Notes under the pieces: model-generated
Databases searched by the model: none
Told to the model about the DNA's origin: nothing
Seen by the model: the letters and a program-made list of their open reading frames with translations, nothing else
Sequence record: NC_029021.1
Length of the DNA: 60,747 bases
Direction: 5' to 3' (one strand)
DNA from: Enterobacteria phage JenK1
Shown: piece by piece, positions 1 through 60,747 of the stretch
Position numbering within the stretch: position 1 is the stretch's first letter
Layout: each line of letters opens with the position of its first letter
Made by a program: the position numbers and the translations under genes

Positions 1-552
1 ATGGTAAAGCCTATTCTACCTTGGACACGTAGCATTGAATACGAAGCCGATCTCACTAAAGAAGAGATGGCTATACGTGACTCTGTCGTTGAAGAATATC
101 TGTTCGATTATGATTGGGTTAATGCGTGTAAACGTGTAGGCATGAGCTCCGCAATGGCGTTTGATTATGCTAAACGTTTTCAGGATGATAGCTATTGCCA
201 AAGACGAATTAAAGAACTTCAACAGCAGAAAGCAAGAAGTGCTCAACGTGACAGCAAATATGAAATAGAACAAGAGCGCCAGCGCATCATTGAAGGTCTT
301 AGATTTGAATCCACTTATCGTGGACCTGGATCTTCTCAAGCTGCTCGTGTTGCTGCATATAAACAATTATGTAGCATCTTTGGATTTGAAGCTCCTAAGC
401 AACAGAAGATGGATGTTGGTGTATCTACTGGTGTTATGCTGGTTCCTATGGTTGGTTCTATGGATGATTGGGAAAGAGTTGCTGGGGAGTCTCAGACTAA
501 GCTGCAAGAGGATACTTTAAATGGACTCAATGATTCAGACACCGTCCACTAA
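1..552 (+). CDS. putative terminase small subunit
   Basis: 183-aa ORF starting at position 1, directly upstream of and overlapping the large terminase ORF; assigned by synteny only. An AGGAG RBS sits 7 nt before the window end, positioned for this ATG if the sequence is circular. Confidence 0.4.
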   Translation: MVKPILPWTRSIEYEADLTKEEMAIRDSVVEEYLFDYDWVNACKRVGMSSAMAFDYAKRFQDDSYCQRRIKELQQQKARSAQRDSKYEIEQERQRIIEGLRFESTYRGPGSSQAARVAAYKQLCSIFGFEAPKQQKMDVGVSTGVMLVPMVGSMDDWERVAGESQTKLQEDTLNGLNDSDTVH

Positions 553-2119
553 GGTAGTATGGAAACCACATCCAGGATCTCAGGTACTGGCACTGAGTTG
601 TCCAGCAGATGAGATTTTATATCATGGTACTCGTGGCCCTGGAAAGACCGATGCTCAGTTGATGCGTTTTCGTCGTTATGTTGGCATGGGGTACGGTAAA
701 CACTGGCGCGGTATCATTTTTGACCGAGAATACAAAAACTTAGATGACTTAGTTGCAAAGTCACAGCGTTGGTTTCCTGAATTTAATGATGGTTGTAAAT
801 TCTTATCTTCCAAGTCAGATTATAAATGGGTATGGCCTAGCGGCGAAGAACTAATGTTCCGTGTTGCTAAAAAGCCTAAGGATTACTGGCTGTACCACGG
901 TCAGGAATTTCCATTTATTGGATGGAACGAATTAACTAAATATCCTGATAGTGGACTTTATGAAGCGATGAAGTCCTGTAACCGTACATCCTTTGTTGCA
1001 GAAGAAAACCCGATAATTATTGACGGTGATGTGTATCAGAGAACTGGGCGTCTTGTGCTTGTTCAACCGGACCATGAATACGCAATGCAGTTCATACTAC
1101 CACCTTTGCCGTTGCAGATCTTTTCTACGACTAACCCATTTGGGGTTGGACATAACTGGGTCAAGAAATATTTTATTAACTCTTGCCCTCTTGGGTCCAT
1201 GAAGAAGGAAGTAACAAACGTCTTCAACCCGCGTACACAGAAACGGGAAGACGTAGTTCGAACTCGCTGCCATATATTTGGTTCGTATCGAGAGAACCGT
1301 AACTTGACACCCGAGTATGTTGCGCAGCTTGTAAACATTGACGATCCTAACCTCCGTATGGCATGGCTCGGTGGTAGCTGGGATATTACGTCAGGTGGAA
1401 TGTTCGACGACCTGTGGCGCCAGAATATACATGTGGTCAAACCATTTCCAATACCTCACTCCTGGAGAATTGATAGATCATTTGACTGGGGCTCAAGTAA
1501 ACCGTTTTCTGTTGGTTGGTGGGCAAGAAGTGATGGTAGCGATATCGTGTATCCAAATGGGCGTCGTGTACGAACAGTACGAGGTGACTTATTTAGGATC
1601 ATGGAGTGGTATGGTACTAACGGGAAACCGAACGAAGGTTTAAGATTATTGGATTCTGAAATTGCTCGTGGTATCATCGTCAGGGAAATTGAAGCTGGTT
1701 TATACGGTCGCGTAGTTCCAGGCCCTGCTGATAACAGCATTTGGGACGTTAAGGATGGTAACAGTACCGCAGCAACAATGTCTAAACCAATAACTATCAA
1801 TGGTCGGTCTTATCCCGGTGTACAGTGGATTCGAAGTGATAAATCACCTGGATCTCGTAAAGCAGGTTGGAAACGAATGCGAGAATATTTAGCTGCTTCA
1901 ATTCCGGATCCTAAGGTTGCCGCTTTACGTGAAAGACCTTCTATGTTTATTTTTGACAACTGTCATCACTTTATAGATCTTGTTCCAACTCTTGCTAGAG
2001 ACGAAGATGATCTTGATGATGTCGATACTGATTCCGAAGACCACATTGCTGACGAAGCTCGTTATCGCGTAGCCAACGAAGCACGTGGCGGTAGTATCGG
2101 TAAGACTGTTGGGACATAA
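521..2119 (+). CDS. terL: terminase large subunit
   Basis: 532 aa; Walker A-like GTRGPGKT near the N-terminus; followed by portal-sized ORF. Confidence 0.75.
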   Translation: MDSMIQTPSTKVVWKPHPGSQVLALSCPADEILYHGTRGPGKTDAQLMRFRRYVGMGYGKHWRGIIFDREYKNLDDLVAKSQRWFPEFNDGCKFLSSKSDYKWVWPSGEELMFRVAKKPKDYWLYHGQEFPFIGWNELTKYPDSGLYEAMKSCNRTSFVAEENPIIIDGDVYQRTGRLVLVQPDHEYAMQFILPPLPLQIFSTTNPFGVGHNWVKKYFINSCPLGSMKKEVTNVFNPRTQKREDVVRTRCHIFGSYRENRNLTPEYVAQLVNIDDPNLRMAWLGGSWDITSGGMFDDLWRQNIHVVKPFPIPHSWRIDRSFDWGSSKPFSVGWWARSDGSDIVYPNGRRVRTVRGDLFRIMEWYGTNGKPNEGLRLLDSEIARGIIVREIEAGLYGRVVPGPADNSIWDVKDGNSTAATMSKPITINGRSYPGVQWIRSDKSPGSRKAGWKRMREYLAASIPDPKVAALRERPSMFIFDNCHHFIDLVPTLARDEDDLDDVDTDSEDHIADEARYRVANEARGGSIGKTVGT

Positions 2120-2131
2120 GGAGTTTAACAG

Positions 2132-3658
2132 ATGGCCATTTCTTCGGTTCATCCTAAATATTTACAGTTTAGTGCATTATGGTTGAAGATGCGGGACTGT
2201 TTCCTTGGAGCTGACCACGTTAAGGCTCAAGGTACTTTGTATCTTCCACCGACACCCGCTATGCGTTATGACGGTATGAAACCAGGCGAAGATGGCTATA
2301 TCCGTTACAACGATTATAAAGAACGTGCGGTGTTCCCGGAGTATGTCGCTGATGCGGTAGTTAATCACAGTGGTATGCTTCATAGTAAGTCAGCTATTAT
2401 TCAGTTACCTGCTGCAATGGAACCCCTTCGTCAATCTGCTACCAGCAAGCGCGAAGGTTTAGATCAGCTATTACGCCGCATAAACGAGCTACAGCTACGC
2501 GATGGTCGTCTTGGCCTTCTGTTGGAGCTGCCAGCGGGAAGTACCCGTGACACGCTGCCGTACATCGCAGTATACGAGGCGTTAAGTATACGAAACTGGG
2601 ACGACGGTGAAGATGATCTTGGTTCACTTAACCTTAACCTAGTTGTTCTGGATGAGTCCAAAGAAGTAATGGACAAGACTTCATTTGATTGGACTTATAA
2701 AGTTCAATATCGAGTTCTTGTTCTTGGAAGCGCCAACGTAGATGAACCATCAGATAGCGGTTACGTGTATGGGCAGTATATGACAGAACTGCTTCCTGGT
2801 GAAGATGACGAACCAGAAGAGGTGAGCTCTGACGTTGTAGTCCCTCAGTATAAAGGTACTCCGCTTGAGCAGATACCTTTCGTATTTTGTAACGCTATGG
2901 ACTTAGTCCCAGAACCAGATAAACCACCACTACTCGCATTAGCAAACAGATGTATTTCCATTTATCAGGGTGAAGCTGATTATCGACAGGCTTTGTTTAT
3001 GCAGAGCCAGGATACGCTGGTTGTTCGTGGTGGTATTACGAACAGTGACGCAGTTGATGATAAAGCCCCTGTTCGTGTTGGTGCTGGTGCTCGTATTGAT
3101 GTATCTCCGGACGGTGATGCCAAATACATTGGTACTAATTCACAAGGTTTACCGGAGCAACGTAAAGCACTTGAAGCTGACCATAAAGACGCTCAGACCC
3201 GTTCCGGGCATTTAACCAGTGCAGAAAGTGCTTCTCAAGAATCTGGTGACGCACTGGAAACACGTCTTATCACTAAGACTGCTTCATTAGTTGGTATTGC
3301 TAAGACTGGTGCTGCTGCGTTAGAAAAAATCCTTCGTATTTGTGCTATATGGATGGGATTAAATCCAGACGAAGTTAAAGTTACACCTAACCTTGACTTC
3401 AGCAAAGCTAATATTGAAGGACAGGAATTGGTGCAGGTGCAGACTGCCAAGAATCTTGGTGCTCCGTTATGTGCTGAGTCTATGCACAACTGGTTGCAGG
3501 ATAAGGGAATGACCTCTTTGACGTTTGAAGAGGAGATGAAACGGCTTGAGGAGGAGCGCAAAGAATACCCGTTCCTTTTACCTCAAGTTAAAAACGATCA
3601 GAACCAAATCCAGCAAACAACTGGAGAACAGACGGGGAATGAAAATGCCGCTAAGTAA
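2132..3658 (+). CDS. portal protein (putative)
   Basis: 508-aa ORF immediately after terL and before scaffold and capsid genes; assigned by size and synteny. Confidence 0.6.
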   Translation: MAISSVHPKYLQFSALWLKMRDCFLGADHVKAQGTLYLPPTPAMRYDGMKPGEDGYIRYNDYKERAVFPEYVADAVVNHSGMLHSKSAIIQLPAAMEPLRQSATSKREGLDQLLRRINELQLRDGRLGLLLELPAGSTRDTLPYIAVYEALSIRNWDDGEDDLGSLNLNLVVLDESKEVMDKTSFDWTYKVQYRVLVLGSANVDEPSDSGYVYGQYMTELLPGEDDEPEEVSSDVVVPQYKGTPLEQIPFVFCNAMDLVPEPDKPPLLALANRCISIYQGEADYRQALFMQSQDTLVVRGGITNSDAVDDKAPVRVGAGARIDVSPDGDAKYIGTNSQGLPEQRKALEADHKDAQTRSGHLTSAESASQESGDALETRLITKTASLVGIAKTGAAALEKILRICAIWMGLNPDEVKVTPNLDFSKANIEGQELVQVQTAKNLGAPLCAESMHNWLQDKGMTSLTFEEEMKRLEEERKEYPFLLPQVKNDQNQIQQTTGEQTGNENAAK

Positions 3659-3731
3659 AGGCGTGCAACGTAAAGCAAAAGACAAGAGTAAAAAATAGTT
3701 GCTTCATTCTTAATGATGTATTAGTCTTTAT

Positions 3732-3761
3732 AGCGCGGTAGAACGGTCTATCGCGCTTTTT
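3732..3761 (+). terminator. intrinsic terminator after portal gene
   Basis: Stem agcgcggtaga / tctatcgcgct (11 bp, one G-T pair) with acgg tetraloop, then TTTTT. Confidence 0.6.
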
Positions 3762-3789
3762 AGTGGAACGGTCCACAATGGAGAATTTT

Positions 3790-4668
3790 ATGAACAAATA
3801 TCACATTCATCTAGCGGTAGCTTATTCCGCTGGCTTCTTCCAGTCCATGCCTCGTTTTGGTGCATTGGAACTTGAATATACTTCTGAAGATGAAATCCCG
3901 GAAAACGCGCGTGAGTATTATTCCCAAGAAGGCGATAAGTGGATCCTCACTGGTGTAAAGGGTGGTGGCAAACAGAATATTGACAGGTTGCAATCTGCAC
4001 TTGAAAAAGAACGCAACGATCATAAAGCGGTCAAGAGTAAGCTAAGTAAGCTGAACGGACGTGATATTGACGAACTCTTGCAGCGCGACGCTGAATATGA
4101 AGAGCTTAAACTGCGTGCGGATAAAGTTGATGATGAAAAGTTGGAGCAAATCATTAACGTACGAATCCGTAACAAGTTGACTCCGCTTGAGCGTGAACGT
4201 GACGAGCTGAAAAACAAACTTTCTACCTATGAGAAGCAAGTAGAAGAGCTGACCACAAAAGAGAAGAACCGCATCGTTAAGACCGCTCTCAGCAAGGCTG
4301 CAATGTCTGCTAAAGTGATCACTGAAGCTATTGACGACGTGGAACTGATTGGCTCTCGTTTGTTTGAGCTCACTGAAGACGGTCAGGTTGTGACACGCGA
4401 CGGTGTGGGTGTAACTCCTGGGATCACCCCAGAAATGTGGTTACAGGACATCCAGGATAAGAAACCTCACTGGTTCCCTGGAAACGTTGGCGGTGGTGCT
4501 GGTGGCTCACGTACCCCTGGCGCTGCTGGTAAGAACCCGTGGAGTGCCGACGGTTGGAACCTTACTGAGCAGGGTAAAATTCTTCGTGAAAATCCTGAAA
4601 AAGCAGGCCGTCTGGCAGCCATGGCTGGCGTGGACTTGAAGCGTCCAGTACGTCCAGTTAAAAAATAA
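3790..4668 (+). CDS. scaffolding protein (putative)
   Basis: K/E-rich coiled-coil-like protein with Gly-rich C-terminal region, between portal and capsid genes. ATG at 3790 has a GGAG RBS; the ORF-track start at 3763 is a GTG just after the terminator. Confidence 0.5.
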   Translation: MNKYHIHLAVAYSAGFFQSMPRFGALELEYTSEDEIPENAREYYSQEGDKWILTGVKGGGKQNIDRLQSALEKERNDHKAVKSKLSKLNGRDIDELLQRDAEYEELKLRADKVDDEKLEQIINVRIRNKLTPLERERDELKNKLSTYEKQVEELTTKEKNRIVKTALSKAAMSAKVITEAIDDVELIGSRLFELTEDGQVVTRDGVGVTPGITPEMWLQDIQDKKPHWFPGNVGGGAGGSRTPGAAGKNPWSADGWNLTEQGKILRENPEKAGRLAAMAGVDLKRPVRPVKK

Positions 4669-4677
4669 TAAAATTTG

Positions 4678-4706
4678 TTGACACTCCCTCCGGTTGGTGT
4701 TAGTTT
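4678..4706 (+). promoter_or_regulatory. candidate sigma70-like promoter in capsid gene leader
   Basis: TTGACA (4678-4683), 17-bp spacer, weak -10 TAGTTT; followed by two overlapping hairpins. Confidence 0.25.
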
Positions 4707-4806
4707 TACATCAACCGGAGCACGGGCTCCGATCAATCAAGGATTATTGGAGCCTCCCACGGCGGTAGAGTTCCAAAGTAAATCGATTAACTTTGCGGAG
4801 ACTACC

Positions 4807-5910
4807 ATGTCTAAAATTCTGTCAGCTCCGATGCTTAATTTGCGAGCTACCAATTCAATTCTTCTGTCTGCTGTTCGTCGTGGTGCGATCACTGAACTTG
4901 CAGATGTTATCGTTCCAGAGATCTTCGTACCGTATGTGCAGAACCGCACAACTGAAAAGTCCCGACTGATTCAGTCTGGTGCTATTGAGATTTCTGAGCG
5001 TCTTAACGCTGCATTGATGGGTGAAGGTACTACCTTTAACCAGCGTTTCTTCAAAGACCTGGATCGTGACGAAGAAAACGTTTCAAGCGCAAGCGATGCA
5101 ACCGATTCTACTCCTGGTGGTATCAAATCTGGGCGTGAAATTCAGATCCGTCTGTCCCGTAACCATTCATGGGGTTCTGCGGACCTGCTGGACAGCCTGA
5201 TCTCCCCTGACCCGCTGGACGCTATCATTAACTTAGTGGCAAGCTACCGTCAGAGCCGTCTGCAACGTGCATTCGTTGCAACTGTAGGTGGTGTGTTCGC
5301 TATGAACGCCGCTGCTCCGGCTGGTTCCGGTGATAAGAAGTCTACTCACGTTCAGAACGATATGACCCACGACATTTCTGGTTCATCCTTCGTTGATGGT
5401 GTGACTAACTTCAACCCGGCTGGTGTTATCCTGGCGGCTGGTACTATGGGTGACTCCCTGAACGACCTGTCTATGATGATGGTTCACAGTGTGGTCTACC
5501 AGCGTATGCAGCTAATGAACCTGATCGACTTCATCCCAGATGCTCGTGCTGAAGTAATGATCCCGACCTACATGGGCCGTGAGGTTATCGTTGACGATAT
5601 GATGCCGCATGAAAGCGGTAAATACGAAACCTGGCTGGTTGGTCGTGGCGCATTCCAGTTAGGTGTTGGTTCACCGAAAGTTCCTGTTGAAACTGAACGT
5701 AAACCTGCATCCTACAAAGGTGGCGGTTCTGAAATCCTGTTCCACCGCTGGGAAAACATCATTCACCCTGTCGGTCACGCATGGGTTGGTACTGCTGCTG
5801 AAGGTGGTCCGGATAACGCCGCTCTGAAAACTGCTACCAACTGGGCTCGTGTATTCCCTGAGCGTAAACAGATTAAGATTGCTCGCCTGATCACTCGCGA
5901 ACACGCTTAA
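4807..5910 (+). CDS. major capsid protein
   Basis: 368 aa from ATG 4807 (ORF-track start 4675 is TTG inside the structured leader); strong host-like codon bias (ctg, cgt, ggt, aac); follows scaffold gene and ends at a terminator. Confidence 0.7.
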   Translation: MSKILSAPMLNLRATNSILLSAVRRGAITELADVIVPEIFVPYVQNRTTEKSRLIQSGAIEISERLNAALMGEGTTFNQRFFKDLDRDEENVSSASDATDSTPGGIKSGREIQIRLSRNHSWGSADLLDSLISPDPLDAIINLVASYRQSRLQRAFVATVGGVFAMNAAAPAGSGDKKSTHVQNDMTHDISGSSFVDGVTNFNPAGVILAAGTMGDSLNDLSMMMVHSVVYQRMQLMNLIDFIPDARAEVMIPTYMGREVIVDDMMPHESGKYETWLVGRGAFQLGVGSPKVPVETERKPASYKGGGSEILFHRWENIIHPVGHAWVGTAAEGGPDNAALKTATNWARVFPERKQIKIARLITREHA

Positions 5911-5930
5911 TGCTTTAGCCATGTAATTAA

Positions 5931-5954
5931 AGGGGCCTATATGGTCCCTTTTTT
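5931..5954 (+). terminator. intrinsic terminator after capsid gene
   Basis: Stem aggggcc / ggtccct with tatat loop, then TTTTTT. Confidence 0.6.
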
Positions 5955-5967
5955 GTTAGGAGGAAAC

Positions 5968-6402
5968 ATGCGTTATCAACGTCATTCAAGACATCGTCGT
6001 TATGTACGTCATGAACGTCACGGTTCAGATGCAACACCTAAAGCAAAGATTAAGACTGTAGGTAAAGTTCAGTATTCAGCTGACGGTGAAAGTGGTTGGC
6101 AAGATACAATCCCTGAAGGTCTTATGAAAGTAAGCACACCACTGACTTTCTACATTCGTGCTAAAGAAGTAGATCCAGAGGATGATGGTTCTTATGTTTA
6201 TAAGTTCCAGATTGCCGCTGGAACTGGCGATGCGTTGTCCCTTCAAAATGCGGGCGTCAACAAAGCAAAAATCTCTGGTACAGCTTCAGAGGATATGCTG
6301 AGTAAGACGTTCAGTGTTAACTGTACCGTTGAAGACAGTTATGGGACAGAAGTTACGGGAACTGCATTAACGCAAGCCTGGTCCGCAGCTCCCGCAGCAT
6401 AA
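5968..6402 (+). CDS. hypothetical protein with Arg/His-rich N-terminus (possible head decoration protein)
   Basis: Strong RBS aggagg 5 nt before ATG 5968 (track start 5941 lies inside the terminator hairpin); N-terminus RYQRHSRHRRYVRHERH followed by a beta-rich region; gene is bracketed by two terminators. Confidence 0.5.
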   Translation: MRYQRHSRHRRYVRHERHGSDATPKAKIKTVGKVQYSADGESGWQDTIPEGLMKVSTPLTFYIRAKEVDPEDDGSYVYKFQIAAGTGDALSLQNAGVNKAKISGTASEDMLSKTFSVNCTVEDSYGTEVTGTALTQAWSAAPAA

Positions 6403-36022: not shown

Positions 36023-38026
36023 TTAAAACGGTATGTCGTCATCAAAATCTGGTGGTAGTTCTTTACCGTTACCAGTAAGAATAGGTTGATTAGACGTAGA
36101 ATGCAATACTGTCGTACGGGAATCAGTCTGCTCATCTTCATCAAACTTATTCGTATAACTTCCACCAAACTGGGACAGACCATTCATTGCTGCAATTTGT
36201 ACAACAGGACGTTCGTTTGTTGCTTCTTTCTTACCGAACTCGCTACCGTCATAACAACTATTCAACACTTCAGGGAACTTACCCTTCAAGTTGACATATA
36301 TGTGCGTCGGTACACGAAGCTGGCTGACCACATTGAGAGCTTCGTCAATGTTAGCTGGGATTGCCAAGCTGCAATGCTCGCGCCACCAGTTACGCGCTTT
36401 CTTGCCCGCAAAGCCAGTATGGAACAGGCAGATATATTGTTGGATAGTCTGTGAGCCACAAAGATAGTCGACACGAAGTGTTGGTGGTTTAGAACGGTCG
36501 CCCCTGTTCTCGTGGCGGTAGTAACTTACCATATCAACTTTCAATACCTCAGTGACCGGTAAATCATTCTTGATAATAGCTTTCGTACTAGCACTCGCCA
36601 TTAGTTTCTTCTCAAAAGTAAACTCATGACCGCAATAACCAGCACGGCACGCTTTATTATTTGTAATGGTATAGCCTAATCCTTGTAGATAGAGTATTTC
36701 TTCATGCGACATGCTACTTGTGTCGAATGGTTTTAACCCACCACAGAATCGAACTGACGCATGGTTCCATGTTTTACATACCGGGCATTCTTTAACAGGT
36801 GCAGCGGACTTTCCTTTCTGCCCTGGGCGCTTAGGAATTACAGGGTCATTAATAGGCCCAAGGCGTCTTGTGTTACCTGCATAGTCCAATACAAGACAGT
36901 TCTGTTTATGCGAAGCGGAGATAGCTTGCAAACGACCCTCTGTTGTGGTCAAATCAAAACCATCTGCATAATCAGGTCGTGTACCACGTCCAAGCATCTG
37001 AACCCACAAACGGGAAGATTGAGATGGTCGCATACCAATTATCAAATCAAGCCCCGGATGGTCAAAGCCTGTCGTTAATACGTTGTTGTTTGCTATTGCC
37101 TGTAAACGACCAGCTTTAAAATCAATAAGATACTGGTCACGCAAGGCTTTCGGTGTATCACCAGTTACAACTTCACAACTAATACCGCGCTCGTTGAGGT
37201 AGTCTTTGACATCTTTTGCATGGTCTACACCAGCACAAAAGACAAGCCAACTCATTCTATTCTCTTCTTCCGCAATACTAATCGCATCATCTAATAAATG
37301 GCGAGTTACATCAGGATCGTTTACAACCTTTTGAAGTTCGCTTTCAATGAACTCACCGCCTCGAGTATGAACACCACTTACGTCATACTCTTTCTTTGTT
37401 TTACGTGGTACTAACGGAACAAGATAACCTTCATCAATGAACCAGTTGAAGCACTCTACGGTACACGCGTTAAATACGATTTCATCAAATAGAGCGTTAG
37501 GCGCATAATCATCTTTGATGATAGAACCAAAACCAAGACGCCAACTCGTAGCAGTAAGACCGATAATCTTTAGATATGGGTTCTTTTCACGAATGTGCGC
37601 AAAGAACTTCTGATAACTTGTTTGCTGATTTGGGCTAATAAGGTCACATTCGTCAACTATAATAATATCAACGTCCTCGAAGTATTTAGCTTGTTTTGCA
37701 ACAGACTGAATACCTGCGAACGTTATCATTGCATTCTTATCCTTGCGACCCATACCAGCACTATAAATACCAGTCGGTGCTTCAGGCCACAACTTCTTAA
37801 ATTTATCGTGGTTCTGGTCTATCAATTCTTTTACGTGAGTAATTACCATCATGCGGGTACTACCCCAATTATCGTGAATTGTCTTTAATAGACCAGCAAT
37901 TACAAGGGACTTACCAGTCCCTGTAGGCAACAAGATAACAGGATTTCCTGACTTTTCACCATACTTGATGAAATAGCGCAATGTACTGTTTACAGCTTCT
38001 TGCTGATAATCACGTAGTTTGAACAT
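36023..38026 (-). CDS. superfamily 2 DNA helicase with SSB-like C-terminal tip
   Basis: Walker A LLPTGTGKS, DECD box, Cys-rich region; extreme C-terminus PPDFDDDIPF matches the E. coli SSB C-terminal tip. Confidence 0.75.
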   Translation of the reverse strand: MFKLRDYQQEAVNSTLRYFIKYGEKSGNPVILLPTGTGKSLVIAGLLKTIHDNWGSTRMMVITHVKELIDQNHDKFKKLWPEAPTGIYSAGMGRKDKNAMITFAGIQSVAKQAKYFEDVDIIIVDECDLISPNQQTSYQKFFAHIREKNPYLKIIGLTATSWRLGFGSIIKDDYAPNALFDEIVFNACTVECFNWFIDEGYLVPLVPRKTKKEYDVSGVHTRGGEFIESELQKVVNDPDVTRHLLDDAISIAEEENRMSWLVFCAGVDHAKDVKDYLNERGISCEVVTGDTPKALRDQYLIDFKAGRLQAIANNNVLTTGFDHPGLDLIIGMRPSQSSRLWVQMLGRGTRPDYADGFDLTTTEGRLQAISASHKQNCLVLDYAGNTRRLGPINDPVIPKRPGQKGKSAAPVKECPVCKTWNHASVRFCGGLKPFDTSSMSHEEILYLQGLGYTITNNKACRAGYCGHEFTFEKKLMASASTKAIIKNDLPVTEVLKVDMVSYYRHENRGDRSKPPTLRVDYLCGSQTIQQYICLFHTGFAGKKARNWWREHCSLAIPANIDEALNVVSQLRVPTHIYVNLKGKFPEVLNSCYDGSEFGKKEATNERPVVQIAAMNGLSQFGGSYTNKFDEDEQTDSRTTVLHSTSNQPILTGNGKELPPDFDDDIPF

Positions 38027-54774: not shown

Positions 54775-55269
54775 TTAGTTACCCCCTTTATTATTGAGCC
54801 CGTTGAATTTACGCCATGCGTAGAATTCAATCGTTGCATTATTAATATTCCAACCATTAGCTTTCGCAAGGTCACGGACGTTACCAATAGTTGGCACACT
54901 ATCAGGTAACATATTATCCAGGGCATTCCAAACGTCTGCGCATTTACCTTTAATTGGGCGGCGGACCCCGTTGCGCGTTTCGCTGCGCGTTTTGCTCTTG
55001 GCGGGAGCGACCGGAGCTTGTTGTGTGGTCACTTCCACGACAGTCGCTTTATCAGCTTCAACCAGATCGTTAGCTGCCTTGTTAACCGCGCTTTCGCTGT
55101 ACCAGTAGCGGCCACCGTCTTCTTGCGGTTCCTGGTGAATAAAGCTATTAGCTGTCGCAGTGTCCACATCCAGAACCTTTTTTAAGGCACGGCGAGCGTT
55201 AGACATATTGGTGAAGAAGCGAGCATCTTTTGCTACGCGAGTGATAGTAACCATTGTGAATATCTCCAT
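54775..55269 (-). CDS. hypothetical protein
   Basis: 164 aa; N-terminal TITRVAKDA loosely resembles paralog family A; preceded by second copy of the palindromic element. Confidence 0.5.
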   Translation of the reverse strand: MEIFTMVTITRVAKDARFFTNMSNARRALKKVLDVDTATANSFIHQEPQEDGGRYWYSESAVNKAANDLVEADKATVVEVTTQQAPVAPAKSKTRSETRNGVRRPIKGKCADVWNALDNMLPDSVPTIGNVRDLAKANGWNINNATIEFYAWRKFNGLNNKGGN

Positions 55270-55296
55270 GTTGTTCTAGCGGATTGCTAGTGGGAG

Positions 55297-55317
55297 CCCA
55301 CTGTAACAATGGGCAAC
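55297..55317 (-). promoter_or_regulatory. palindromic element (copy 2)
   Basis: gcccactgtaacaatgggcaa; 19 of 21 nt identical to copy at 54056-54076. Confidence 0.4.
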
Positions 55318-55330
55318 CATTAGCACGCTA

Positions 55331-55636
55331 TTATTGTTGAATAGCTTTATCTATCATTGCGATGAAGCAGAACACAGACCAAAGGCTATTCGCTTGGCAT
55401 ACTGCGCGGCCGTACATTACAGCGTGAGAGCTAACAGTACCGTCCTCGTTAATGCGAATATATAACGGGGTGCTGGAATACTTTTCGTTGCCCGGGAGCA
55501 TTACTAAATACTCGTCGAAACCCCAATCCCCGTCGACTTTTTCCGCAGTAAGGCCCAGCTGATACAGGCGCTTGCCGATAATACGTTTGGTGATCATGGA
55601 CTGGGACATAGAACGCGGTAAGTAGATAATGGACAT
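55331..55636 (-). CDS. hypothetical small protein, paralog family A (copy 1)
   Basis: 101 aa; AAGGGAG RBS; paralog of 53759-54016 product. Confidence 0.55.
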   Translation of the reverse strand: MSIIYLPRSMSQSMITKRIIGKRLYQLGLTAEKVDGDWGFDEYLVMLPGNEKYSSTPLYIRINEDGTVSSHAVMYGRAVCQANSLWSVFCFIAMIDKAIQQ

Positions 55637-55821
55637 AATGCAATCTCCCTTCGGGTGAAGCGGGCGCGGAACCCGTGTCCCGCTTTAAAACCCCCTTTAC
55701 CCCACGCGTTTATAGTATGACAACAGGGTATCAGATGCAACTATTATCTGCATTATTTTAGAACTTTTTTAGTTGTGTTTCATAATAATAACATCCGGGA
55801 CTATACGGTAGATGGTGTGCC

Positions 55822-55890
55822 GGAAATACCAGGTAGCGCGAGTGTGCTGAAAATACCAGGTAACAGCACGCGCAGGAAATACCAGGTAGC
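55822..55890. repeat. three iteron-like direct repeats in divergent intergenic region
   Basis: ggaaataccaggtagc (55822-55837), gaaaataccaggtaac (55849-55864), ggaaataccaggtagc (55875-55890); spacing 27 and 26 bp; each contains CCAGG. Confidence 0.55.
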
Positions 55891-56241
55891 ACATACATAG
55901 ACAGCACATAGTGGGCAGGTGGATAGTAACAGATGTAATTATACTGGACGGTATAGTATAGTCATGTAATAGATAGCACACTAATCAAATAAAAAATAAT
56001 AACGCGTGTAACAATAAACAACGTTATAGTAGAGCGCATGACAGTCACATCACGTAACAATCACCTCACTGACGATCACGGGACGTTATAGTAACGCCGC
56101 GGGGCGGCTCTTAGATCTCTGCCAAGGATTCATCGTTTGTAGATTGTCTCGTCACTAGACACTTTATATCCTCACCTCACCTGCCCTATATTGTTCGTAT
56201 AAAGTTAATTCCGTATGTAAATACTCGAGAGGAGATCTGTT

Positions 56242-56529
56242 ATGTTCGTTCTGGCTTTCAGTAGTGCAATATGGCTAGGTATCAACTGGATCCTTGCAAT
56301 TATATTGGGTCTTGTGATTTGGTATGTGCCGTTTATGCGTTACGCTGTTATCATTTCGCTTGTATATTTAGTTGTTAAACATTTCTTCGTATGGTGTGTA
56401 TGCAACCCACAAGCTGCAAACATCAAACGTAACAAAGCGAACTTCTTTAGTGTACTTATTTTAGGTTCACTGATTGTGTACGCATGGTTGCTCGGTGCGC
56501 AGAACTTAGGTTGGTTCACGTTACCTTAA
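56242..56529 (+). CDS. small membrane protein
   Basis: 95 aa with two or three hydrophobic helices. Confidence 0.5.
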   Translation: MFVLAFSSAIWLGINWILAIILGLVIWYVPFMRYAVIISLVYLVVKHFFVWCVCNPQAANIKRNKANFFSVLILGSLIVYAWLLGAQNLGWFTLP

Positions 56530-56614
56530 TGTGGTCACTAATTGTTGCGGCCGGCTATGTTAATCAACTTGCGTATCCTGTTATAGTTATTCCGTTAACG
56601 TTAAAGGGGTTTAT

Positions 56615-56980
56615 ATGAACGAGAATATAGTTAAAGCCTGGTCTATCTTACGACCACAGTTGAAAGACGATCGTGTCGCTTTTGTTTTATGTCCTGCTAA
56701 CGAATATCGCCGGAAGCTCGAAGAAGTGTTGCGCGAAGATCCTGAGTTCGTTCGCTGTGTGCAACTGTCGCGGGAGTCATCTGTGGTACAGTTTGATCGT
56801 TTCCATCTTCGTTTGGTTGCTCATCGCAGAGACTCGTATGAAGACACTGTAATTCGTACGAGTGGCTTCCATTGTGATATTGCGATTCTTGACTGTGAAT
56901 TAAGTATTGGGCAGAAACAAGAGTTATATAATCTCGCTCGTGAACGTCATGGTGAATTGTTGATTGTGGAAGTGCAATAA
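56615..56980 (+). CDS. hypothetical protein
   Basis: 121-aa ORF. Confidence 0.5.
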   Translation: MNENIVKAWSILRPQLKDDRVAFVLCPANEYRRKLEEVLREDPEFVRCVQLSRESSVVQFDRFHLRLVAHRRDSYEDTVIRTSGFHCDIAILDCELSIGQKQELYNLARERHGELLIVEVQ

Positions 56981-57318
56981 TGGCCAAAGATATCGTTATT
57001 CCGAAAATGTATTGCCAACTTCGTGATACTTTATTACAAAGCGGTTGGATTATTAGTCACACCGATGTGAATGATACTTATATTGTTCTTATACCACCTG
57101 ACGGGACGATATCCTGCATTTTGCACTACATGCCCGAAGCAAAGACGGTTTATCCGAACGGGTCGTTCTTACTTCGTCTGCGCTCCGATACATGGAAGAT
57201 CCAAACGGATACCTGTGCAATTGACGAGAATACCAGTAAAGAGTTTATTCGCAAGCTAACTCAGCTGAATAAAATCTACCAGCATGTTAAATTTGATTTA
57301 TTTAAGGAAGTCTTCTAA
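56980..57318 (+). CDS. hypothetical protein
   Basis: 112-aa ORF; coupled to neighbours. Confidence 0.5.
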   Translation: MAKDIVIPKMYCQLRDTLLQSGWIISHTDVNDTYIVLIPPDGTISCILHYMPEAKTVYPNGSFLLRLRSDTWKIQTDTCAIDENTSKEFIRKLTQLNKIYQHVKFDLFKEVF

Positions 57319-57758
57319 TGCTTACTATCAACGATCCAATCAAGCATAAAACTCAGAAAAGCATAATGGCTTGCATTCCTACCTGTCTTGCTATGCTTCT
57401 TGACAAAGACCCTGAGCAGGTATATGACGAGTTCACAAAGGACTATATCCGTGGACATATTGATGTTGCTAGTTATCTATATCGATACGGTATCTTTGCG
57501 CAGCCGCATATCACTGCCGGTATGCACCAAATCCGACCTGGGCGCTTGTATCTTGCGACTGTACCCTCTTTGCAGTTACCTGGACTTTTCCATCAGATCA
57601 TTATTGACGCTCGCTTCGGCGATGTTAAGGTATACGACCCATGTAAAGGTCTGCAAGGGAAACAATACTATTCCTATGACCACGTTGCAGAGGGTAATGA
57701 TCTGGCGTATCCTCTGCGGTCTTTCCTGATTGATTACGAAATTATATTGCCGGGGTGA
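57318..57758 (+). CDS. papain-like cysteine peptidase, C39-like
   Basis: Q at -6 then CIPTCLAML (compare C39 CGxACLAM), later HQIIIDARFGDVKVYDP (compare C39 HFVVL...DP). Confidence 0.5.
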   Translation: MLTINDPIKHKTQKSIMACIPTCLAMLLDKDPEQVYDEFTKDYIRGHIDVASYLYRYGIFAQPHITAGMHQIRPGRLYLATVPSLQLPGLFHQIIIDARFGDVKVYDPCKGLQGKQYYSYDHVAEGNDLAYPLRSFLIDYEIILPG

Positions 57759-57761
57759 TTT

Positions 57762-58115
57762 ATGAGCTTGCAACGTTTTGACAATGCAGAACTCGCGTGT
57801 GAATTTGCAAAGCGTAAGTTCGCTAAAACAGGTACGCCGCGATGCGTACATGCGGCTATTGGGCAAAATGGGGCAAAGTATTGGTACGTTGGTACAGTAG
57901 CTCAGATCAAGCGAAGATTCGCGACTACGCCCGAAATGCGCCGGCTTGGGTCCCCTACACTTGTGCGAAACAGGCAGTTGGATAAAGAGGAAATTTATCA
58001 ATTTCTTAGGAATTACACTGGTAAAGAGAATAGATTTCAGGTTGCAGCGAAAGAGTTCAATATCGGTCTTTCCACTGCTTATAAAATTTATCACATATAT
58101 GGGCGTTTAATATGA
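57762..58115 (+). CDS. putative DNA-binding protein (C-terminal HTH-like)
   Basis: 117 aa; C-terminal segment QVAAKEFNIGLSTAYKIY resembles a helix-turn-helix. Confidence 0.4.
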   Translation: MSLQRFDNAELACEFAKRKFAKTGTPRCVHAAIGQNGAKYWYVGTVAQIKRRFATTPEMRRLGSPTLVRNRQLDKEEIYQFLRNYTGKENRFQVAAKEFNIGLSTAYKIYHIYGRLI

Positions 58116-58606
58116 CCGCAATTGCTTATCGTAATGGTATATTGGCTGTAGATCGTCAGGTTACATGGGGTAATATTGCAACAACTACGGATAAAGTTCA
58201 CACTGTCAACATTCCAGGAATTGGACTTTGTCTTGTTGCGATGTCTGGTAAACTACGTCCTGTAACTGATATTATAGACCATCTGAAAACTACGGTTCGT
58301 GGACGCAAAGAACCTTTCTCAGATTTAAATCCGGATTCCCGTTATGGTATTGCGGTGACGCAGGAGCTTGTCGTATATCCTATCTACGGGGATGGTAAAT
58401 TAGGTCTACCGGACACTAATGAATTTATTGCGGAAGGTAGCGCGTTTGAGTTCTTGATGGGTGCAATGGCGGGAGGTTGCACCGCCGAAGAGGCTGTACG
58501 GCTGGCGTGCGTATATTGCGATAGTTGTGGTCAAGGGGTTAAGTTCTATGATGTAGCCTATACTCTTAAAGTGGCGCAGTGTAAAATCGAGGAGAAACCA
58601 TTTTGA
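58112..58606 (+). CDS. HslV-like N-terminal nucleophile peptidase
   Basis: MTAIAYRNGILAVDRQVTWGN aligns with HslV N-terminus [24 protein letters not shown] as recalled (Thr nucleophile after Met); later IAEGSAF...AGGCTAEEA resembles HslV IAIGSGG...TELSAREIA. Confidence 0.55.
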   Translation: MTAIAYRNGILAVDRQVTWGNIATTTDKVHTVNIPGIGLCLVAMSGKLRPVTDIIDHLKTTVRGRKEPFSDLNPDSRYGIAVTQELVVYPIYGDGKLGLPDTNEFIAEGSAFEFLMGAMAGGCTAEEAVRLACVYCDSCGQGVKFYDVAYTLKVAQCKIEEKPF

Positions 58607-58794
58607 AGAAACCTAAGACTGGTCTGTTCCTTTGTGTTGGTGGACCTTTTGACGGTAAGCGTATACGCTTAACAACATCAGATTTGTATCCAAGTTCCTC
58701 CGTTTTCTCTGTTCCATCCTATAAAAACGGTGAGAAGGGGCAATACGTCTGGAATGATGAAATTCGAAACAGTGTAATCTGGAGAACATCGTGA
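58603..58794 (+). CDS. hypothetical small protein
   Basis: 63-aa ORF; ATGA-type coupling. Confidence 0.4.
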   Translation: MKKPKTGLFLCVGGPFDGKRIRLTTSDLYPSSSVFSVPSYKNGEKGQYVWNDEIRNSVIWRTS

Positions 58795-59018
58795 GTGATC
58801 CTACAAATGCACAATTAGCCGCTGCAAGAGTGTATATGCGCGGAGCTGCCGCTGAGATTGATGCTTTGCCACAATTTGAAAAGCATGTACAGCAACTCGA
58901 AGATAAATTCAAGACTCTTAAAGATCTAGGGGATACAAAAGATGCTATAGCCTTTCTTCTTGCTATCCAATACTTGTCTATGGGGGTTGGTGACAAAGTA
59001 TGTTCCTTAGAAGAATAA
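58791..59018 (+). CDS. hypothetical small protein
   Basis: 75-aa ORF. Confidence 0.4.
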   Translation: MSDPTNAQLAAARVYMRGAAAEIDALPQFEKHVQQLEDKFKTLKDLGDTKDAIAFLLAIQYLSMGVGDKVCSLEE

Positions 59019-59500
59019 TTGGTATTGTTGCACCTTGGATACCACTTGTCATAATTGCTATTCTAGCCAACTGGGCTTATGACAATGCCATAGAATCAGC
59101 TAGAAAGGAGGGTTTCGATGCCGGTGTGTCGTACCAAAAAGAAACTCAGAAAGCGGTTGATTTCGAGGAGGAGAAACGAAGAGCGTATGAGAAAGACACT
59201 ATCGAACGTCAGTACCGATCTCGTATTGAATCTTTGGTTGCCGATCTTAATAATTATCGCGCTACTAATGACAGGTTGCACAACGAAATCGCAACCGTCC
59301 GTAAGTACCTCGGTGACGCTACCGGCCCTCAGCCCGACAGCAAGACAACCGCCCAGATCGCCCGTGTGCTCACCGAGCTGTATTCAGAAAGCGTCACAGA
59401 ATACAGACAAGTGGCAGAAGAGGCTGAAAAGTATCGTCTTGCCGGCGAGCAGTGCGAACTACAGTATGATGCAATGCGAAATCCGCGTAAAGAACGGTGA
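59000..59500 (+). CDS. inner-membrane spanin (Rz-like)
   Basis: N-terminal transmembrane helix, then charged coiled-coil-like periplasmic domain; contains embedded +1-frame lipoprotein ORF. Confidence 0.55.
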   Translation: MFLRRIIGIVAPWIPLVIIAILANWAYDNAIESARKEGFDAGVSYQKETQKAVDFEEEKRRAYEKDTIERQYRSRIESLVADLNNYRATNDRLHNEIATVRKYLGDATGPQPDSKTTAQIARVLTELYSESVTEYRQVAEEAEKYRLAGEQCELQYDAMRNPRKER

Positions 59501-59531
59501 TAAACTGCAAAGTCCTTGCCGGATTGCGTAA
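59187..59531 (+). CDS. outer-membrane lipoprotein spanin (Rz1-like), embedded in +1 frame
   Basis: Signal peptide ending in lipobox LLMTGC, Pro-rich mature region; ATG 59187 preceded by GAGGAGGA. Confidence 0.55.
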   Translation: MRKTLSNVSTDLVLNLWLPILIIIALLMTGCTTKSQPSVSTSVTLPALSPTARQPPRSPVCSPSCIQKASQNTDKWQKRLKSIVLPASSANYSMMQCEIRVKNGDKLQSPCRIA

Positions 59532-59622
59532 CTAACCGTTCAATCTTAATCACACATAATTGATTGTGTGCGTGTGATAATTCAACTATGCTCTATTCGG
59601 TTTAACTGAATGGAGCTTTTTT

Positions 59623-60057
59623 ATGACTATGCAACCACGAGGCATCCGGAATAACAATCCTGGAAATATTCGTTGGGGTGATAACTGGAAAGGTCTTGTT
59701 CCTGAAAACAAACGGACTGACCGTTCTTTCTGTCAATTTATCGATGTAAAATACGGTATTCGCGCCATTGCGCGTATTCTACTAAACTACCGCAACCGCG
59801 AAGGGATGAAACGTGTCGGAAATAAAGGGATTGACACTGTACGGGAGATTATTTCGCGCTGGGCTCCGCCGAATGAAAATAACACTGAAGCTTATATTCA
59901 ATCTGTGTCTAAGGCTTGTGGTGTTGGTGCAGAACAGCCGATTTCAGTGACCGATGATAAAATCATGCTCGCAATCGTGAAAGCGATTATCAAACATGAA
60001 AACGGTGTGCAACCTTATTCTGATGAAGTTTTGCTCGCGGGTATCCACATGGCATAG
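59623..60057 (+). CDS. hypothetical protein, possibly lysis-associated (candidate endolysin by context only)
   Basis: 144-aa soluble protein between spanin pair and two small membrane proteins; no catalytic motif recognised. Confidence 0.3.
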   Translation: MTMQPRGIRNNNPGNIRWGDNWKGLVPENKRTDRSFCQFIDVKYGIRAIARILLNYRNREGMKRVGNKGIDTVREIISRWAPPNENNTEAYIQSVSKACGVGAEQPISVTDDKIMLAIVKAIIKHENGVQPYSDEVLLAGIHMA

Positions 60058-60070
60058 TAAGAGGTTATAA

Positions 60071-60379
60071 GTGTCGCCGAACTGGGATTGGAATATAGTT
60101 TTTATTCTGACTGCCATTGCAATGGTAGGGGGTTCCCTTGGCTACGCTGCAAGAACCCATGATGCTAAAGAAAGGTTCAGACTCAGTGTCTTCATTCAAG
60201 AGGGTGCTTTTTCTGCATTCTTTGGTTTCTTGATAGGTGTAATTAACGTGGAACATGGTGTCTCACTGGGGCTCAGTGGGGCGTTCATAGGTGTGTTATC
60301 TTGGTCCGGTTCAAGAACCATGCTAAAGTTTCTACGGAGAAAGACAGAAGTATGTGACCGAGAAAAGGAAAGAGGTTGA
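60071..60379 (+). CDS. small membrane protein (holin-like)
   Basis: 102 aa with two to three hydrophobic helices and charged C-terminus; GTG start with GAGG RBS. Confidence 0.4.
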   Translation: MSPNWDWNIVFILTAIAMVGGSLGYAARTHDAKERFRLSVFIQEGAFSAFFGFLIGVINVEHGVSLGLSGAFIGVLSWSGSRTMLKFLRRKTEVCDREKERG

Positions 60380-60381
60380 TT

Positions 60382-60618
60382 ATGCGTCACTTCATCAACG
60401 ATCTTCTCATGTTGTGTAAGAAACCGCGATTGCTTTTCATCTATATGATGATTGGACTTGTACAAATTGGAGTCAGTGCTATCGCCATTGATCAGATGCA
60501 CAAGAAACACAGGGCAAACCTGCAACCTTCAACACCACCTGTTTATGTGGTCAATAAGGTTGAACAAATCAAACAAGATATCCGGGAGATAACGTACATT
60601 CCTAAAGTGGAAATGTAG
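60382..60618 (+). CDS. small membrane protein
   Basis: One predicted transmembrane helix; ATG 60382. Confidence 0.4.
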   Translation: MRHFINDLLMLCKKPRLLFIYMMIGLVQIGVSAIAIDQMHKKHRANLQPSTPPVYVVNKVEQIKQDIREITYIPKVEM

Positions 60619-60633
60619 ATTGGTTTATAAGTA

Positions 60634-60671
60634 AAGCCCGCTCCTTGAATTTATATCGAGCGGGCTTTTTA
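60634..60671 (+). terminator. intrinsic terminator at end of right arm
   Basis: 10-bp stem aagcccgctc / gagcgggctt, 14-nt loop, then TTTTTAT. Confidence 0.7.
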
Positions 60672-60690
60672 TTGACATTTGCTATAACCC

Positions 60691-60719
60691 TTGCAATTAA
60701 TTAATCCACCGCTTATATT
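60691..60719 (+). promoter_or_regulatory. candidate sigma70 promoter reading across the window junction toward terS
   Basis: TTGCAA (60691-60696) - 17 bp - TATATT (60714-60719); AGGAG at 60736-60740 lies 7 nt before the window end. Confidence 0.35.
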
Positions 60720-60747
60720 CGTGTCAAGAATCGACAGGAGTAACTTT

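Follow-up and report, generated by a model that had tools for sequence, protein, structure and literature searches.

Here we report that a compact block of three genes in Enterobacteria phage JenK1 encodes two peptidases—a C39-like cysteine peptidase (gene A) and a proteasome homologue of the PPH type (gene C)—separated by a probable helix-turn-helix protein (gene B). The block lies in the window that we analysed, a stretch of 60,747 nucleotides (nt; sequence record NC_029021.1). We favour, with a probability of about 0.45, the explanation that A and C are two independent, catalytically competent cytoplasmic peptidases, that C acts without the host ATPase HslU and that B is a regulator. The soluble, accessory and mobile nature of these genes fits best with a possible role in host takeover or anti-defence. 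Among relatives in the genus Nonagvirus, purifying selection acts on each of the three genes, with ratios of non-synonymous to synonymous substitution rates (dN/dS) of 0.04–0.27 overall and of 0.04–0.13 for B.

An initial annotation, made from the letters of the sequence, had proposed that the three genes form a translationally coupled block, and this was borne out. Positions 57318–58606 are filled exactly by three tightly packed open reading frames (ORFs) on the + strand (Table 1). The successive junctions around them read TAATG, a 3-nt gap, ATGA and TTGA, and these overlaps and the short gap fit translational coupling.

On the basis of its sequence and structural model, the product of A behaves as a C39-type cysteine peptidase (clan CA, papain fold) that lies outside the curated C39 family. 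The AlphaFold2 model, built on 13 homologues, has a predicted local distance difference test (pLDDT) score of 92.9 and a papain-like fold; fold comparison places it nearest to C39 domains, and its nearest folds are cytoplasmic leader peptidases. Four residues, Gln13, Cys19, His92 and Asp107, do not vary across 13 sequences that include close relatives and extend down to 31% identity. They are also invariant at 31–38% identity in Seuratvirus, Vidquintavirus, Kuttervirus, Samunavirus and a Vibrio phage. The order Gln-Cys-His-Asp and, roughly, the spacing of these residues are what we take to be the arrangement in C39 peptidases. The C39-like fold and the catalytic cysteine and histidine that had been assigned to A are both upheld, given a model near C39 and the invariance of Cys19 and His92. 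Pfam and NCBIfam returned no match for A; against Pfam Peptidase_C39, 2 of the 13 relatives reached an expect value (E) of 0.004, still below the cut-off. The PHROGs family to which A is assigned has no functional label, a single-sequence search of PDB sequences returned nothing and a profile of the family found nothing significant in the PDB.

In the mechanism that we propose, Cys19 of A would be the nucleophile, His92 the base and Asp107 the orienting residue, with Gln13 forming the oxyanion hole. The C39 domains of PCAT1, ComA and LahT are parts of peptide exporters and cut double-glycine leaders, whereas A is a free-standing protein of 146 amino acids with no transporter attached, and for A no such substrate is evident. 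No ABC transporter is encoded in the genome region around A. The 63-amino-acid protein encoded directly downstream of C was considered as a double-glycine substrate and is unconvincing, as its Gly-Gly lies inside a conserved core, C-x-(G/D)-G-P-[FWY]-D, and is Asp-Gly in one homologue. The most likely substrate of A would be a cytoplasmic protein of host or phage, cut at a specific site to a limited extent, rather than an exported bacteriocin leader. An intracellular role is suggested by the lack of a signal peptide, as read from the sequence, and by the position of the Kuttervirus homologue, which is translationally coupled between the genes for the topoisomerase II subunits and has no PPH gene nearby. 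In Salmonella phage Maynard, this homologue is gene 191 (3992–4441 of our locus L009), which abuts both subunit genes. The Samunavirus homologue sits among small genes, again with no PPH gene nearby.

The product of C belongs to PPH by sequence and model: it matches each published PPH feature that we examined, and it was placed by this description rather than by alignment to WP_042125023.1. PPH, the first proteasome-family member from viruses, was named in 2021 by Fuchs, Alva and Lupas; it is a protein of about 140 amino acids that is encoded by tailed phages and prophages and has no propeptide (PMC8665760). PPH and RPC are the only proteasome homologues without helix H2, and PPH is set apart from HslV and is present in phages that infect many groups of hosts (PMC8665760). 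C is likewise a small tailed-phage protein with a Met-Thr start, counterparts of the catalytic Thr1, Asp17, Lys33 and Gly47, and no H2. No start codon lies upstream of the ATG at 58112, so C has no propeptide. It differs in its length of 164 amino acids, which is due to a C-terminal extension consisting of a helix and an acidic Pro-Phe tail.

A search of the whole library with a hidden Markov model of the C family yielded 6320 representative relatives, mostly of 140–165 amino acids with a Met-Thr start; the family has a median length of 150 amino acids and is present in many phage genera. Conservation of the predicted catalytic residues is close to complete in 149 diverse relatives: Thr2 is conserved in 143 (the same fraction, 143/149, has a Met-Thr start), Asp14 in 146, Lys28 in 149 and Gly46 in 148. 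The structural model of C has a proteasome-beta-like fold. Sequence searches place C less sharply. PHROGs assigns it to a family labelled ‘peptidase HslV family’ (E = 2.7e-34), Pfam (including PF00227, Proteasome) and NCBIfam gave no match, and a single-sequence search of PDB sequences returned nothing. A profile of 16 homologues gave weak, coherent matches in the PDB to 20S beta subunits and HslV (E = 0.005–0.1); for the HslV chains, E was 0.03–0.1 and the hhalign probability was 4%. Methionine aminopeptidase would expose Thr2 of such a protein. We propose that the host enzyme takes Met1 off C, leaving Thr2 as a nucleophile that would work with Asp14, Lys28 and Gly46. C would then be a mini-proteasome subunit of the PPH type that acts on peptides or on otherwise recruited substrates, possibly by means of its acidic Pro-Phe tail. 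In the record of phage 9g (locus L002, NC_024146), positions 5513–6007 correspond to 58112–58606 of the window, and a 1-nt deletion, which turns CATCTGAAAAC into CATCT-AAAAC, frameshifts the PPH gene; the RefSeq annotation of 9g covers only the 3′ half of this gene.

Sequence and model both indicate that C is no orthologue of HslV. In HslV, the C-terminal tail of HslU docks in a pocket lined by H1 (Phe54 and Phe57) and H2 (Ala79 and Lys80) (PMC6429459). DSSP places H1 of the C model at residues 48–58 and finds coil from there to a strand at 77–83, with no second helix within 59–76. Part of the HslU-tail pocket would thus be missing from C, which makes docking of host HslU unlikely, whereas HslV receives the tail with a complete H1/H2 surface. 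Neither a linked hslU gene nor a significant match to the Proteasome and HslV models was found for C, no ATPase recurs as a neighbour of PPH across the 28 loci compared and no Clp- or HslU-like ATPase appears in the annotation of a relative’s genome. As C has no propeptide, no H2 and no unfoldase gene that travels with it, it most likely acts without HslU. The initial annotation had described C as an HslV homologue that might use the HslU of the host. Its fold, which is that of proteasome beta subunits and HslV, and its Thr2 stand, but C is of the PPH type and not an orthologue of HslV, and use of host HslU is unlikely given the incomplete pocket.

The C-terminal tail of C is flexible in the model (pLDDT of 49 in the last block), and its pattern resembles the C-terminal tip of SSB (single-stranded DNA-binding protein), which has the motif DDDIPF (PMC5872125). 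An end of the form P[FWY] is found in 18 of 176 family members, all belonging to the longer clade of 159–168 amino acids, and is kept in Nonagvirus and in several more distant lineages; relatives of C end in DEEEPF, GDIPF, GDIPW, EGIPF or DEDSPF. It would be a long shot, and one that occurred to us post hoc, that the tail of C mimics the SSB tip and delivers C to proteins that dock on SSB tails, which would be degraded or trimmed without an ATPase. The targets in that case may be enzymes of the host's repair, recombination or restart pathways, or a replisome factor of the phage, and the neighbouring C39-like peptidase would possibly act in the same pathway. Such a tail, if it works in this way, would represent a new, tail-guided targeting of a proteasome homologue. 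Alternatively, by analogy with the HslU tail in HslV, the tail of C might insert itself into an adjacent subunit, an idea that was also noticed post hoc. Only one further real ORF in the whole window ends alike. It encodes an SF2 helicase of 667 amino acids (ResIII, DEAD and Helicase_C; 36023–38026, − strand) that ends in ELPPDFDDDIPF (DFDDDIPF), a sequence identical to the tip of E. coli SSB, which suggests that the helicase either recruits SSB-tail-binding proteins or is in competition for them.

Gene B probably encodes a helix-turn-helix at about residues 70–113, in the C-terminal part of the protein. B matches its PHROGs family with an E of 1e-80, a family without a functional label, and has no match in NCBIfam; in Pfam, B itself reaches HTH_7 at a sub-threshold E of 0.086. 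A homologue from a Klebsiella phage, 20% identical to B, matches HTH_28 (7e-5) and Mor (7e-4), both below the gathering scores, as well as phrog_532, ‘late transcriptional activator’, at 1.9e-4. The profile of the B family aligns with the helix-turn-helix of gamma-delta resolvase (1res) at an E of 0.29, and one GenBank record names a B homologue a late transcriptional activator. The helix-turn-helix label that B had been given is supported by sub-threshold matches only (HTH_7, HTH_28, Mor, phrog_532 and 1res). B may be a Mor-like or resolvase-type DNA-binding regulator; in our scheme it would probably be a regulator, perhaps of the downstream late genes. It resembles Mor/C of phage Mu and Q of phage lambda (the latter by position only) in being small and encoded just upstream of lysis and packaging genes, and the matches of its relatives to Mor and phrog_532 point towards Mu Mor/C, although all are weak and below curated cut-offs. 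B is absent at this position in Seuratvirus and Vid5.

A and C are at most one gene apart in at least 10 lineages of Queuovirinae-like siphophages, down to about 31–35% identity. The order is A-B-C in Nonagvirus, in loci L003 and L043 and in the Klebsiella-type phages, and A-C in L042. A gene for a helix-turn-helix (HTH) protein precedes the pair in L004 and L044 (HTH-A-C), a SLOG (DUF2493) gene separates it in Pantoea phage Vid5 (A-SLOG-C) and a gene for a 61-amino-acid protein does so in Seuratvirus CAjan (A-61aa-C). Adjacency that is kept through such rearrangement is mild evidence of a functional link between A and C. The HTH proteins of L004 and L044 were considered as homologues of B and rejected, as the similarity is not significant (hhalign E = 0.14), although the architecture is alike. 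In JenP1-type relatives in Nonagvirus and in one more distant lineage, B and C no longer overlap, as an additional gene is inserted between them (a 146-amino-acid ORF at 5561–6001 of L013; proteins of 91–96 amino acids at 5711–6001 of L015 and 5729–6004 of L021). A SLOG-type protein is encoded beside or between the C39-like and PPH genes in Seuratvirus by CAjan gp82 (1463–1855 of L007) and in Vidquintavirus by Vid5 ORF94 (4462–4830 of L010); it is a YAcAr/DUF2493 protein, annotated as ‘GTP-binding domain’, with no Nonagvirus counterpart at that position.

By their distribution across phages, the two peptidases are separable, and each appears as a widespread phage accessory gene; outside the Queuovirinae-like clade, PPH has no recurrent partner family in 28 loci. 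In our preferred explanation, A, B and C would be expressed from one rightward operon, which extends from a divergent control region near 56.2 kb to a probable end at a hairpin at 59.6 kb, just ahead of the endolysin and holin genes, and each peptidase would act by itself in the cytoplasm. Several points weigh against this explanation or the links within it. The whole region, including the holin, spanin and terminase genes, is syntenic in Queuovirinae-like phages, so common descent may account for most of the A–C neighbourhood. No C39-like gene lies within 6 kb of PPH in 19 distant loci, and outside the clade each gene is found without the other (PPH at these loci, A in Kuttervirus and Samunavirus). 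Ser110 of C, the equivalent of proteasome Ser129, is conserved in 82 of the 149 relatives. The deletion in the 9g record may stem from a homopolymer sequencing error; if it does not, it points to C being dispensable. With the spanin genes as its continuation and the lysis and packaging genes downstream of it, the operon leaves room for a late role in lysis or morphogenesis. Finally, no functional study of phage HslV-like, PPH or C39-like proteins was found in the literature searched; the papers on Vid5, EC151 and the BASEL collection do not discuss A and C.

The main rival to two independent peptidases is a single functional unit of A, B and C, in which A trims or activates C or its substrate, or in which A and C are a tag-and-degrade pair of the Anbu kind, with B as the unit’s own regulator. 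We consider this unlikely, although it survives better than the other alternatives. It would account for adjacency maintained through at least five gene orders and for the HTH gene that flanks the A–C pair in most lineages, and it has a precedent in Anbu, a proteasome homologue whose operon also encodes a papain-fold enzyme of the transglutaminase type (PMC5666114). Like the phage block, the Anbu operon combines a threonine peptidase of the proteasome family with a papain-fold cysteine enzyme, and an AAA+ partner is missing. However, it is found on bacterial chromosomes, its cysteine enzyme is transglutaminase-like whereas A is C39-like, and it carries an ATP-grasp ligase and Alpha-E, both of which are missing from the phage block, where no ligase or tag gene is present. 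The separate occurrence of PPH and C39-like genes described above also counts against a single unit, as do the lack of an HTH gene between or beside the pair in Seuratvirus and Vid5 and the insignificant similarity of B to the HTH proteins of L004 and L044.

It is rather improbable that A, C or both process head or scaffold proteins in place of an absent prohead protease. The layout of the genome would suit such a role: the head module (1–5910 of the window) encodes a portal, a scaffold (phrog_206) and a major capsid protein and has no recognisable prohead protease, and A, B and C point in the same rightward direction as the genes for terminase, portal, scaffold and capsid, which lie 2–6 kb further downstream. 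In L023, L040 and L027, PPH adjoins genes that seem to encode terminase, portal or connector proteins (read by eye, with no family scan). However, phages with a separate scaffold protein often mature without a protease (P22, SPP1 and T7). Moreover, the PPH and C39-like genes are found in many unrelated contexts, such as between topoisomerase genes, and C is frameshifted in the 9g record. The text of the Vid5 paper on the virion proteome, determined by liquid chromatography–tandem mass spectrometry, makes no mention of either protein (gp93 or gp95); this holds for the text only.

More doubtful still is a role of A in lysis as an auxiliary peptidase, an endo- or isopeptidase released through the holin to act on the envelope. 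The similarity of A to PeiR still lends this role a low probability. PeiR, PeiW and PeiP (MEROPS C71, from methanogen prophages) carry wall-binding repeats and act on pseudomurein, whereas A has no such repeats and would meet no such substrate in E. coli. The initial annotation had suggested that A could be an unconventional endolysin, an assumption for which there is no need. A regular endolysin gene is present (59623–60057; phrog_873, E = 2e-64) and makes a wall-cleaving role for A unnecessary, and a LydA-type holin and Rz-like i- and o-spanins complete the lysis set. A has no export signal, signal-arrest-release (SAR) sequence or wall-binding domain, its nearest folds are cytoplasmic enzymes, and its relatives in Kuttervirus (between topoisomerase genes) and Samunavirus are found among replication or early genes. 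Least probable of all is that C is a surrogate HslV that assembles with host HslU to redirect ATP-dependent degradation, as it lacks the H2 side of the tail pocket (Ala79 and Lys80), fails the Pfam Proteasome and NCBIfam models, reaches HslV only at the profile E values given above and belongs to a family that is classed apart from HslV and occurs in phages of many host groups.

The block is no new kind of system, and both enzyme families have already been catalogued in phages. GenBank records of close relatives carry the labels ‘papain-like cysteine protease’, ‘proteasome subunit alpha type-2’, ‘peptidase HslV family’ and ‘putative protease’; the novelty of the peptidase pair had therefore been overrated, because both folds are annotated in public records of near-identical phages. 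A search of BFVD returned only uncharacterised phage proteins. The value of the locus is practical: in 9g-like coliphages both peptidase genes are intact, lie together and evolve under purifying selection, so that these two families of phage peptidases can conveniently be studied in E. coli K-12. The BASEL relatives Bas19 and Bas20 grow on E. coli K-12, so function can be approached with standard phage genetics and hslU-deleted hosts. Concrete leads are the conserved A–C pairing, the probable independence from HslU and the SSB-like tail.

Compared with phage records, positions 56600–59600 gave 16 matches at 90–97% identity, all of them 9g-like siphophages of E. coli or Salmonella, with phage BRET as the top match (96.8%). 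From its sequence, the window is a Nonagvirus genome (9g-like, subfamily Queuovirinae), and it looks like a whole genome. The small terminase gene is at base 1 and is followed by the genes for the large terminase, portal, scaffold and major capsid proteins, which puts the A-B-C block near the right end of the map, upstream of lysis genes that in turn precede the packaging genes.

Table 1 Features of the A-B-C locus and its surroundings (positions in the window)
Feature	Position	Strand	Details
Repeat cluster in divergent intergenic region of about 600 bp upstream of the operon	55815–56093	+	
Two upstream co-transcribed genes	56615–57318	+	121 and 112 amino acids; PHROGs phrog_17838 and phrog_21152
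Gene A, C39-like cysteine peptidase	57318–57758	+	146 amino acids; phrog_4049
Predicted catalytic residues of A	57354–57356; 57372–57374; 57591–57593; 57636–57638	+	Gln13; Cys19; His92; Asp107
Gene B, probable C-terminal helix-turn-helix protein	57762–58115	+	117 amino acids; phrog_17085
Gene C, PPH-type N-terminal-threonine peptidase	58112–58606	+	164 amino acids; phrog_1040
Predicted catalytic residues of C	58115–58117; 58151–58153; 58193–58195; 58247–58249	+	Thr2; Asp14; Lys28; Gly46 (oxyanion)
Flexible C-terminal tail of C	58583–58603	+	...KIEEKPF-COOH, acidic then Pro-Phe
Downstream gene, start overlaps the stop of C	58603–58794	+	63 amino acids; phrog_12090
Terminator-like hairpin between the spanin genes and the endolysin gene	59590–59616	+	12-bp stem and T run

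No terminator-like site was found on the + strand from the first gene of the unit (56242) to the strong hairpin upstream of the endolysin gene, at which the transcription unit of A, B and C likely ends. The same hairpin divides the lysis cassette into two putative transcription units. Promoter-like matches are near chance level, and an Rfam scan of 55000–60747 found no RNA family.

The divergent region upstream of the operon contains two sets of repeats. Three 21-nt direct repeats, 26–27 nt apart and with the core GAAATACCAGGTA, and three copies of ACG[GT]TATAGTA, 62–73 nt apart, occur within 55815–55888 and 55948–56093. Both motifs are essentially limited to this region at 55.8–56.1 kb, and a genome-wide class of promoters was ruled out on account of this local distribution. 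The cluster is a candidate control region or origin, and the repeats could be operators, unusual promoters or origin iterons.

The 63-amino-acid protein downstream of C has, in front of its conserved core, a basic N-terminal extension that ranges from 0 to about 30 residues depending on the lineage. The genes for the 121- and 112-amino-acid proteins stay beside the module in the closer lineages and are clustered in five lineages. The 121-amino-acid protein, encoded two genes upstream of A (56615–56980), weakly matches a sigma-factor model (E = 0.003, far below the cut-off), and the phage 9g record labels it a ‘potential sigma factor’.

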